Positions 12,368 to 14,050 of a DNA stretch of 24,000 nt are shown here, piece after piece; the first letter of the stretch is position 1, and each line of letters begins with the position of its first letter. This stretch comes from Bacteroidaceae bacterium (lineage in GTDB: Bacteria > Bacteroidota > Bacteroidia > Bacteroidales > Bacteroidaceae): contig JAFXVN010000040.1 of assembly GCA_017524545.1 (NCBI GenBank), positions 50,985-74,984 on the forward strand. Direction: 5' to 3'. A program made the translations under genes and the position numbers. A model generated the notes under the pieces. The model worked only from the letters and a program-made list of their open reading frames with translations. It was not told the origin of the DNA and ran no database searches.

Positions 12368-14050
12368 TTAGCTATTTAGGCACGCCTTGATAAAGCTCAT
12401 AAAGAGCGGATGCGGGTGCAGTACTGTCGAGGTATATTCTGGATGGAACTGCGTGCCAATGTACCACTTCAGCGATGGAATCTCGACTATCTCAACGAGG
12501 TTCGCATCGGGATTGATGCCCACACACCTCATGCCAGCCTTCTCGTATTCCTCCTGATACTTGTTGTTGAACTCATAGCGATGGCGGTGACGTTCGCTGA
12601 CAATCAATTTTTCACTTTTCACTTTTAACTTTTCACTTTCATAGGCTTGAAGGGCTTTGCTTCCCTCCTTCAACTCACATTCGTACGCTCCAAGTCGCAT
12701 CGTGCCGCCCATTTGCGTGATGCTCTTCTGCTCTTCCATCATGTCGATGACGTTGTGAGGCGTTTCCGAGTCCATCTCACTACTGTTGGCATCCTTGTAG
12801 CCAAGGACATTCCGTGCAAACTCAATCACCATCATCTGCATTCCGAGGCAGATGCCGAAGGTTGGGATGTCGTGGATGCGGGTATGTTCGGCAGCAATAA
12901 TCTTGCCTTCTATGCCGCGCTGACCGAAGCCCGGACAGATGACGACACCTGCCATCCCTTCCAATCGTGAGGCGACATTCTCCGTTGTCACCTCCTCGCT
13001 ATTGATGAAATGAATCTTTGCCTTCACATCGTTGTAGATGCCAGCCAGGTTGAGGCTCTCGCGGATGCTCTTGTAGGCATCCTGCAGGTCGTACTTGCCG
13101 ACGAGGGCGATGCTTACCTCGCGCTTGGCGTTGCGCTGCTTCTCCAGGAAGTCACGCCAAGGCTTCATGGCTGGCGTTTCACCTACAGGGATGCCAATCT
13201 TGCGCAGGATGGCGGCATCGAGGCCTTGCCGCTGCATGTTCACCGGCACCTCATAGATGCTGGGCATGTCCTCGCTCTGCACCACGCACTCAAGATCCAC
13301 ATTGCAGAACCCCGCCACCTTCAGGCGCAATGCGTCATCAAGGTGGCGTTCTGTACGGAGCACGAGGATGTCGGGCTGAATGCCCATGCCTTGCAGCTCC
13401 TTGACGGAGTGCTGCGTGGGTTTCGTTTTCAGTTCATCGGCAGCCTTCAGGTAGGGAACGTATGTCAGATGCACACAGACAGCATCTCTACCCAGCTGCC
13501 AGCGAAGCTGACGGATAGCTTCCATGAACGGCGCACTCTCAATGTCACCAATCGTGCCACCAACTTCGGTTATCACAAAATCAAGGCCCCCCTCTTGTCC
13601 CCCCAAGGGGGGATGATTAGGTGAGTAGGTCTCCTCCCCCTTGGGGGAGGTTGGGAGGGGGCTCCTTAGCATCCTCCTCTTTATCTCATCCGTGATGTGA
13701 GGCACCACCTGGATGGTCTTGCCCAGATAGTCGCCACGGCGCTCACGGTCTATGACGGTCTTGTAGATGCGGCCTGTCGTAATCGAGTTGTTGCGGGTGG
13801 TGCAGATACCGGTGAAGCGCTCGTAGTGACCGAGGTCGAGGTCCGTCTCCATACCGTCTTCCGTCACATAGCACTCGCCGTGCTCGTAGGGATTGAGCGT
13901 GCCTGGGTCGATGTTGATATAAGGGTCGAACTTCTGAATCGTGACCTTGTAGCCTCGAGCCTGCAACAACTTGCCGATACTTGCGGATATAATGCCCTTA
14001 CCCAACGAGGAAACCACACCGCCTGTGACGAAAATGTATTTTGTATTCAT
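12368..14050 (-). CDS. pyrG: CTP synthase
   Basis: The start was chosen at [19 protein letters not shown]. It has [11 protein letters not shown], the GATase triad region GICLGMQ, and RHRHRYEFN. It carries two in-frame repeat modules, at 13586-13663 and 12605-12637. Confidence 0.93.
12605..12640. repeat. Heptamer tandem (AAAGTGA-type) embedded in frame in pyrG
   Basis: The minus strand reads GAAAGTG AAAAGTT AAAAGTG AAAAGTG AAAAATTG. It encodes [11 protein letters not shown] directly upstream of the conserved [11 protein letters not shown]. Confidence 0.8.
13586..13663. repeat. GC-rich palindromic composite embedded in frame in pyrG (78 nt, 26 codons)
   Basis: 13631-13663 is CTCCTCCCCCTTGGGGGAGGTTGGGAGGGGGCT. 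13586-13612 is a diverged inverted copy, GCCCCCCTCTTGTCCCCCCAAGGGGGG. The composite encodes [26 protein letters not shown] between the conserved [12 protein letters not shown] and [14 protein letters not shown]. Confidence 0.9.

Follow-up and report, generated by a model that had tools for sequence, protein, structure and literature searches.

An in-frame inverted pair of dispersed triplex-motif repeat units in the CTP synthase gene of a Bacteroidaceae bacterium

In Escherichia coli, bacterial interspersed mosaic elements (BIMEs) are mosaics of repetitive extragenic palindromic (REP) sequences, or palindromic units (PU), of types Y and Z, and BIMEs and REPINs alike are extragenic and associated with REP-associated tyrosine transposases (RAYTs). 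The BoxC/PIT/TMECO repeats of E. coli and other bacteria are G/C-rich class II intrastrand triplex motifs (Hoyne and Maher 2000, cited in PMC4666352); they are present in cyanobacteria and in over 260 proteobacterial genomes, circular dichroism and nuclear magnetic resonance show that TMECO forms a triplex, and the repeats have been linked to locus instability, with no transposase found and with TMECO of E. coli K-12 "always located intergenically" (PMC4666352). Finally, the Rickettsia palindromic elements (RPEs; Ogata et al. 2000) and the intragenic GTAG/CGTC REPs (Di Nocera et al. 2013, PMC3733652) are short palindromes that lie in frame within functional genes. Here, we analyze a window of 24,000 nucleotides (nt) from a Bacteroidaceae bacterium (GenBank assembly GCA_017524545.1, contig JAFXVN010000040.1, positions 50,985 to 74,984 of the forward strand), in which the CTP synthase gene, pyrG, carries 78 nt of GC-rich inverted repeat in frame. 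This insert is a variant of two known kinds, the triplex-motif repeats and the in-frame palindromic repeats, and its two units, A and B, belong to a multifamily, BIME-like repeat system in a rumen Prevotellaceae lineage. The 78 nt form an inverted, "tail-out" doublet of two dispersed triplex-motif units, and we consider it probable that this doublet is translated, is selfish or near neutral, and was spread by copy-and-paste on a folded strand.

As judged from its open reading frame (ORF) and translation, pyrG lies on the minus strand at positions 12368 to 14050 and encodes 560 amino acids; the ORF itself extends from 12368 to 14098, with the true start (MNTKYIF) at 14050. The product is 100% identical to P0001, the CTP synthase of the metagenome-assembled genome (MAG) Bacteroidaceae bacterium, and solved CTP synthases match it at an E value of 1e-168. 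The insert, at positions 13586 to 13663, encodes 26 residues and is composed of unit B, a spacer, and unit A. Unit A, 33 nt on the plus strand (13631 to 13663; CTCCTCCCCCTTGGGGGAGGTTGGGAGGGGGCT), starts with CT, followed by a pyrimidine arm (Y-arm), CCTCCCCC (13633 to 13640), a TT loop, a purine arm (R-arm), GGGGGAGG (13643 to 13650), a TTG linker, a mirror tail, GGAGGGGG (13654 to 13661), and a final CT, making a class II (C-G*G) motif on that strand; the coding strand reads 11 residues from it. Unit B (13586 to 13618) is oriented the other way, with its motif on the coding strand, where it encodes (H)PPLGGQEGG: on the minus strand, a Y-arm, TCCCCCC (13613 to 13607), is followed by a TT loop, an R-arm, GGGGGGA (13604 to 13598), a CAAG linker, a mirror tail, AGGGGGG (13593 to 13587), and a final C.

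A preliminary description of this DNA had recognized in the 78 nt a GC-rich repeat, inserted in frame, of which further copies lie in gltB, the gene for the large subunit of glutamate synthase, with the 33-mer at 13631 to 13663 as its consensus. Both points stand, as this 33-mer recurs twice in gltB with one mismatch each, against no match in 100 shuffles. The other half of the insert, which at positions 13583 to 13611 is 72% complementary to the 33-mer, had been taken for a diverged inverted partner; rather than a decayed 33-mer, however, it is a member of a second recurrent family, B (GCCCCCCTCTTRTCCCCCCAAGGGGGGAWGA). The spacer length of 18 nt given at the time is correct when counted from 13613 but becomes 12 nt (13619 to 13630) if unit B is taken as 33 nt. 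The complementary outer ends of the insert and the C-run/G-run hairpin within each half were seen as described, while the mirror-image purine tail that defines the units had been overlooked. Finally, the 98-nt stretch containing the insert does fold on itself, with predicted energies of −49.3 kcal/mol as RNA (z = −2.5) and −24.5 kcal/mol as DNA, but the branched structure envisaged earlier is not the minimum-energy one: a single long hairpin is predicted to be more stable by 4 to 5 kcal/mol. An Rfam scan of the window gave no match.

On the basis of their sequence, units A and B are, by structural definition, G/C-rich intrastrand triplex motifs. The ITxF class II definition asks for a pyrimidine stem, a complementary purine stem, and a further purine stem that is the mirror image of this one (Holder et al. 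2015, PMC4666352), with stems of 6 to 15 nt, loops of 1 to 6 nt, and at most one mismatch if the stem has at least 7 nt (PMC4666352). Using our own finder and inspection by eye, we found unit A (CCTCCCCC-tt-GGGGGAGG-ttg-GGAGGGGG) to have a stem of 8 nt, loops of 2 and 3 nt, and no mismatches, and unit B, on the minus strand, to have a stem of 7 nt, loops of 2 and 4 nt, and likewise no mismatches. The third block of unit A repeats the purine arm in reverse order rather than complementing it; given this succession of a pyrimidine arm, a purine arm, and a mirror purine run, two fold-backs could bring a single DNA strand into a Y-R*R triple helix. The complementary strand holds the matching pyrimidine-motif arrangement.

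The importance of the tail was assessed in a set of sampled loci (designated by L numbers), which are pieces of 8 to 22 kb per genome and amount to approximately 1 Mb in all. All perfect all-pyrimidine/all-purine hairpins with a stem of at least 7 nt were collected there, without presupposing a tail. A mirror tail was present on exactly one side in 275 of 300 hairpins and on both sides in none; among unique hairpins outside family A, 92 of 95 had such a tail (≥85% match), and 0 had it on the other flank. Where the arm had an A, the tail base facing it was A in 83 cases, T in 44, G in 3, and C in none; where the arm had a G, the tail base was G in 610 of 645 cases. The allowed bases are those of the triads of an antiparallel purine-motif triple helix (G*G-C, A*A-T, and T*A-T), and it is because of this three-way covariation that the third strand appears to matter. 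In 49 imperfect A-like copies, falling outside the pattern used for scanning, the first loop, the linker, and the end dinucleotides had 9 to 13 substitutions per position, compared to approximately 1 in the purine arm and approximately 3 in the pyrimidine arm and tail; changes in the pyrimidine arm were nearly all at the loop-closing C, and several internal changes were seen in the tail. Additionally, the loop dinucleotide flips from AA to TT in orthologous copies (gltB site 1 in L010 and pyrG in L118), and loop inversion is a classic signature of hairpin extrusion.

Compared with BoxC/PIT/TMECO, the units of the window share the succession of C-rich arm, loop, G-rich arm, loop, and mirror G-rich arm, in which T-A*A or T-A*T triads are allowed, as well as dispersal, high conservation, palindromic pairing, the absence of a known transposase, and residence at variable loci. 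Units A and B nevertheless miss the TMECO pattern, 5'-CCCTCNCCC-N3-6-GGGNGAGGG-N3-GGGNGAGGG-3', since their stems are 8 and 7 nt, their first loop is 2 nt, and the T/A position is displaced; other families, in L119 and L120, come near it (CCCCTCTCT-cacg-GGAGAGGGG-tta-GGGGTGAGG). Moreover, TMECO is reported to be intergenic in E. coli K-12, whereas all four units of the window lie inside pyrG or gltB and approximately 63% of the motifs in the sampled loci lie inside ORFs. The hosts differ too, being proteobacteria and cyanobacteria in one case and Bacteroidota in the other ("Bacteroid" does not occur as a word in PMC4666352). A BLAST search of a TMECO-like unit against E. coli genomes gave no match, an uninformative outcome that probably results from the low-complexity filter or from the E value attainable by a 35-mer in 28 Gb.

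With the Rickettsia RPEs (Ogata et al. 2000) and the intragenic REPs, the window units have in common that palindromic repeats lie in frame in functional genes, contribute approximately 10 to 30 extra residues, and occur as singles, dimers, and clusters, at several sites per gene and in housekeeping genes. The 78 nt in pyrG and the 11 extra codons at gltB site 1 indeed introduce neither a frameshift nor a stop codon and are missing from orthologues. RPEs and REPs, however, are plain hairpins without a mirror tail, the REPs being tagged with GTAG or CGTC, whereas the window units are homopyrimidine/homopurine, have triplex potential, and come in many families. The host phyla differ as well (Alphaproteobacteria and others for RPEs and REPs), and the likeness to RPEs drawn here concerns behavior. 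As in E. coli BIMEs and REPINs, finally, units of two types take turns in inverted orientation, separated by linkers that are short and variable, and form doublets and higher clusters; the extragenic location and RAYT association of BIMEs and REPINs were not seen here. A literature search retrieved no description of triplex motifs in coding sequences or of such a system in Bacteroidota, an absence that is no proof of novelty; the unit sequence itself returned 0 papers, and searches on RPEs and Prevotella or on in-frame palindromes in Bacteroidetes returned nothing specific.

While the preliminary description rightly named pyrG and gltB as sites of the unit, the phenomenon is genome-wide, extends across several phyla, and is not special to those genes. 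A scan of public genomes (one genome per species) for the 26-nt core of unit A, CCCCCTTGGGGRAGGTNGGGAGGGGG, yielded at least 126 copies in at least 116 stretches. Most of the matches listed were in rumen Prevotellaceae or "Bacteroidaceae" MAGs, with further ones in Mangrovibacterium, Draconibacterium, Prolixibacteraceae, Cytophagales, and Ferruginibacter and, in addition, in an Opitutae MAG (at least 9 contigs), a Tepidisphaerales MAG (at least 3 contigs), and a Candidatus Nomurabacteria genome. Units with similarity were also seen in megaplasmids of Deinococcus, Rahnella, Neorhizobium, and Aeromonas, in stretches without a listed gene; viral contigs held no unit A copy. The identity of the core across phyla may reflect either transfer or convergence, and we rejected it as proof of horizontal transfer, because, with a single T to place in a C run of 8 nt and two short loops to vary, the possible designs are few enough for convergence to occur. 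In the sampled loci, 344 motifs were found, compared to 1 after local shuffling, although part of this excess is ascertainment (129 A copies served to fetch the loci).

The borders of the A copies are sharp and their flanks unique: conservation runs from 5 nt before the core (C-Y-C-C-T) to 2 nt after it (C-Y), which gives the 33-nt length and the consensus CYCCT-CCCCCTTGGGGGAGGTYGGGAGGGGG-CY, with mostly CT at the ends. Flank logos of 92 distinct unit A sites revealed neither a target duplication nor a target motif. Family B (TCCCCCC-TT-GGGGGGA / AGGGGGG; unit length, 27 to 33 nt) occurs 20 times in other loci, and composites of B, spacer, and A were found in other genes (L028, L034, L040, L081, L110, and L114), with spacers of 18 to 24 nt that differ in sequence. 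Single units with a perfect sequence and sharp ends are nevertheless commoner than doublets. A 45-nt module consisting of unit A plus TGGGAGGGATGGGGAGGTAAAAGA has been tandemly expanded in frame in one gene family (L034, L038, L089, L101, and L105), and its copy number varies between MAGs.

These ends invite comparison with REP/REPIN-type elements mobilized by a RAYT-like transposase (IS200/IS605-type HUH Y1), which would bind the hairpin in single-stranded DNA and cut at the flanking CT, with the B-spacer-A doublet as the mobile REPIN and the single units as its remnants. Hairpin units that occur as singlets and inverted doublets without target duplication would be expected of such elements, and both ends of the unit are CY, for the most part CT, the dinucleotide at which E. 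coli TnpA(REP) cleaves. Intragenic REPs are documented, most of them in Opitutus terrae and R. conorii (PMC3733652), and the Opitutae MAG carries many A units. However, the units and their flanks contain no GTAG or CGTC tag, the defining mark of the REP superfamilies; perfect, sharp-ended singlets outnumber doublets, the spacers of which differ between loci; and no Y1 transposase gene was found beside any motif in the approximately 1 Mb of loci. The mirror tail, furthermore, is not known to have a role in RAYT recognition. We regard RAYT-type mobilization as rather unlikely, and as a candidate for the copying step rather than as a full alternative.

The history of the pyrG insert was followed in 120 PyrG relatives (84 to 100% identity), in which the loop in question is without an insert or is occupied by the A/B doublet, by GC-rich doublets from other families, or by AT-rich inserts; the first three states all occur among relatives of 84 to 93% identity. 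Loops without an insert comprise 3 to 6 residues, for example, EDT, EGLDEG (RMLRE-GLDEG-LDF), and DEKGEE (DA is also listed), and the best-matching solved CTP synthase, 9kao, shows a 22-residue gap exactly at the PyrG insert, between a helix and the VxxEIGGT strand of the sequence alignment. The preliminary description, which gave E. coli-type CTP synthases only a few residues at this position, is thus supported, in that the loop of other CTP synthases is short there. Alleles without the 78 nt, which it had proposed to look for, do exist: the site measures 9 to 18 nt in L124 and L117. Across the relatives, the loop is absent, carries the same nucleotide units, or belongs to other repeat families, and a loop of similar length without nucleotide similarity is not a shared feature of the group.

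The A/B doublet itself is present in pyrG of L071, L090, L094, and L119, with a decaying copy in L118, and L017 has three units in pyrG. All eight doublet-bearing pyrG alleles examined have the tail-out arrangement and fold strongly (−44 to −84 kcal/mol). By flanking DNA, the nearest relatives of the window (L120, L124, and L117; approximately 90 to 93% identity) have another family, EDT, and EGLDEG in the loop, respectively, whereas the genomes sharing the A/B doublet (L119, L090, L094, and L071) are more distant (approximately 80 to 83%). Between the orthologues with the doublet, unit B is 100% identical and the spacer 73% identical; the spacer sequence is not conserved between loci either. 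A metagenome scan with a 26-nt pyrG flank identified four contigs, none from the same strain, with EDT, another GC-rich doublet, and an AT-rich insert as loops. We also considered that the 18-nt spacer may be a displaced native loop: its length coincides with that of EGLDEG, but the two show no relation in sequence, and the loop of other alleles has 3 residues. In a further relative, L127, the AT-rich loop insert reads KNEELRNKNEEF.

The persistence of doublets at this position could point to a selected nucleic acid signal in pyrG and gltB, that is, a structured DNA or mRNA element (affecting, for example, transcriptional or translational pausing or stability) that tunes these glutamine amidotransferase genes. 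Such a signal would fit the finding that eight genomes have doublets, all folding strongly but of different families, at exactly the same place in pyrG, as it would the complete conservation of unit B between flanks that are only approximately 80% identical and the avoidance by substitutions of the arms and, less strictly, the tail. On the other hand, the nearest relatives L117 and L124 do without the insert, and the same units lie at 92 to 93 distinct, unrelated genic and intergenic sites. Motifs outside family A show no orientation bias relative to transcription (47 versus 44), and purine-motif triplexes do not form in RNA (PMC4666352). A signal of this kind is, in our view, distinctly unlikely, more so than RAYT-type mobilization.

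A comparable turnover was observed in the neighboring purF-like amidotransferase gene (10510 to 12309, minus strand), which has an AT-rich palindromic in-frame insert at 11975 to 12057 (ATGTATAATTGACAATTGAAAATGGATAAT / ATTATCCATTGTCCATTGTCCATTATCCAT) encoding MDNGQWTMDNDTAGPNYQLSIFNCQL. At the same loop, L117 shares the AT-rich insert, L120 has a GC-rich triplex-motif doublet, and L118, L121, and L122 have nothing. The presence of different element types at the same loops suggests that these hot spots reflect permissive protein sites more than DNA target specificity. AT-rich repeats of the TTTACAATTTGACGATTTACAATT type also lie in intergenic regions of the window (12317 to 12370, 17480 to 17533, 18816 to 18856, and 23415 to 23508) and may be related to the AT-rich inserts of the purF-like gene and of pyrG in relatives.

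The two remaining units of the window are A copies in gltB (18855 to 23411, plus strand), 117 nt apart: at site 1 (20583 to 20615, minus strand), the unit is in frame as SPLPTFPKGEE, and at site 2 (20733 to 20765, plus strand), where the mismatch gives the linker TC, it is in frame as LLPLGGGREGA. That the two halves of the pyrG insert follow the same order as these copies, as had been pointed out, is true but automatic for any inverted pair. Site 1 has exactly 11 codons more than the empty alleles of L117 and L120. In L118, both sites are occupied by another family (CCCCTCCC / GGGGAGGGG / GGGG(G)TGGG) with the orientations unchanged, L078 combines unit A at site 1 with a further family at site 2, and many other motif families occupy other positions in gltB of the relatives. 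The two inverted A units bound a patch of approximately 240 to 280 nt (20560 to 20800), in which DNA identity to L120 and L117 drops to 57 to 67%, compared to 93 to 100% in the flanks; at the protein level, the corresponding values are 45 to 55% inside the patch and 95 to 100% outside. Within the patch, the window resembles the more distant L078. In view of this drop, presence or absence of the units there is attributable to a recombination patch and not to clean insertion or excision, and the inverted A units may mark or promote the end points of recombination. Other indels in pairwise alignments of the loci were only tandem duplications or unequal exchanges between units, in line with published work that connects triplex motifs to unstable loci. 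A third palindrome lies in frame in gltB at 21206 to 21264, with 29-nt arms that are 76% complementary and 1 nt apart, encoding roughly GWVCRVGNATYGTP; this loop varies in length among relatives and holds a triplex-motif insert, LLSPQGGKNTSPLGEDGRG, in L117.

A classical 78-nt miniature inverted-repeat transposable element, with terminal inverted repeats served by a DDE transposase and with the gltB 33-mers as broken halves, would account for the inverted ends of approximately 30 nt and for the folding of the 78 nt as one hairpin. This explanation is largely refuted and to be given very little credence, since the flank logos of the 92 sites are devoid of a target-site duplication, the two arms belong to different families, single units with sharp 33-nt borders are the commonest form, the doublet spacer is not conserved in sequence, and the gltB units flank native gltB sequence, not that of an element.

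How such units fare inside genes was examined in loci with a G+C content of at most 56%. Long ORFs contained 91 of 146 non-A motifs and 57 of 89 A motifs (62 to 64%), compared to 73% of random 30-nt windows by the same criterion. No stop codon occurred in any of the six frames of 134 of 214 motifs, and together with a length (33 nt) that is a multiple of three, this means that copies can persist inside genes. The frames in use are not a random choice: a PPP run occurred in the frame used in 8 of 137 distinct internal motifs (6%) but in 224 of the 685 unused frames (33%), and 86% of used frames, versus 45% of unused ones, were without PP. Similarly, the 54 distinct internal sites of unit A were spread over three frames as 24, 11, and 7, with only 12 in the three PPP frames together. 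This avoidance of polyproline argues that the units are translated, given that splicing or skipping would leave no frame filter, and frame usage thus indicates, as far as sequences can tell, selection on the translated product. Polyproline stalls ribosomes, and we infer that the filter is linked to such stalling. In the arg gene cluster of related MAGs (L024, L055, L005, and L088), unit A also occurs at gene ends, extending C termini, as well as directly after the argG stop codon, so that units overlap stop codons in addition to loops. As for adaptation at the protein level, in which the Pro/Gly-rich peptide would be a selected, functional CTP synthase loop (for example, in filament formation or regulation), the nonrandom frame, with one 11-residue frame favored, and the retention of the loop in several species are outweighed by the same DNA lying in both orientations, in several frames, in unrelated proteins, and between genes, by loop peptides that are unrelated or absent in relatives, and by conservation that follows DNA arms and loops instead of codon positions, making this explanation highly improbable.

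Returning to the doublet as a pair of translated, selfish or near-neutral units, we envisage the following course of events. New copies would arise by copy-and-paste acting on a folded single strand, with sharp 33-nt ends and without target duplication, and propagation or maintenance would depend on that folded strand. Within genes, units would be translated into Pro/Gly-rich surface-loop peptides, and purifying selection would decide where and in which frame they survive, permissive loops accumulating units and polyproline frames being lost. Copies would subsequently be gained, lost, and swapped through patches of homologous recombination and through slippage between units. The units would thus be selfish or near-neutral DNA under a structural constraint at the DNA level, not a regulatory or protein feature specific to pyrG.

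Several observations weigh against this scenario. No mobilizing enzyme was found among the motif-flanked ORFs of the sampled 8- to 22-kb pieces, these ORFs being housekeeping genes, such as argG, an acetyltransferase gene, coaBC, and amtB, or antisense artifacts. Clean filled/empty pairs differing by 33 nt between near-identical strains did not turn up in the pairwise locus alignments, so the precise insertion event is deduced and not observed. The persistence of doublets at one pyrG site through family turnover, and a unit B without substitutions where the flanks have diverged, could each indicate a selected function. A G-quadruplex or a plain hairpin is an alternative to the triplex for both units, the ViennaRNA models being devoid of triplexes, and the core shared between phyla could stem from convergence instead of transfer. 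Finally, the AlphaFold model of PyrG (42 close homologues) has a mean predicted local distance difference test (pLDDT) score of 47, too poor to judge whether the loop is exposed.

A bolder version holds that the triple-helical fold is the heritable "identity" of a selfish element that has no transposase, with copies being made, corrected, and replaced via the folded strand and with inverted pairs serving as patch end points. We regard this as doubtful speculation. If true, it would explain the covariation of the three blocks over dozens of families and phyla, as well as the replacement of one family by another at the same codon positions in essential genes (A versus CCCCTCCC/GGGGAGGGG/GGGGTGGG at both gltB sites), and inverted unit pairs would create mosaic alleles of housekeeping enzymes such as gltB.

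Elsewhere in the window, an intergenic array at 7169 to 7258, which is also self-complementary, comprises four 21-nt units (TATTWTCAAGSNNTGAAAATA); situated ahead of the ORF at 7480 to 8793, it resembles a group of operators or binding sites. A 64-nt repeat, present at 102 to 165 and 3773 to 3836 with 91% identity, includes a hairpin resembling a terminator (AAATCCCAAGGCA...TGCCTTGGGATTT), with a run of T residues after it. The region from 10510 to 23411, as well as the corresponding loci L117 to L123, consists almost wholly of glutamine-dependent or nitrogen assimilation genes (the purF-like gene, pyrG, amtB, glnB [P-II], dapF, an aminotransferase gene, and gltB, to which relatives add gltD, asnB, carAB, and glmS), and in the relatives these genes are peppered with repeat inserts.

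Intrastrand triplex repeats have so far been described as intergenic curiosities, and in-frame palindromic repeats are known mainly from Rickettsia; these two literatures are joined by the finding of triplex-type repeats that densely populate essential genes of Bacteroidota abundant in the rumen. The natural filled, empty, and swapped alleles offer material for tests of the spread of the units and of a possible role in promoting recombination. For the Prevotellaceae themselves, the units inflate and vary the lengths of proteins in MAGs, create spurious "hypothetical" peptides, and may be hard spots for polymerases and sequencing.

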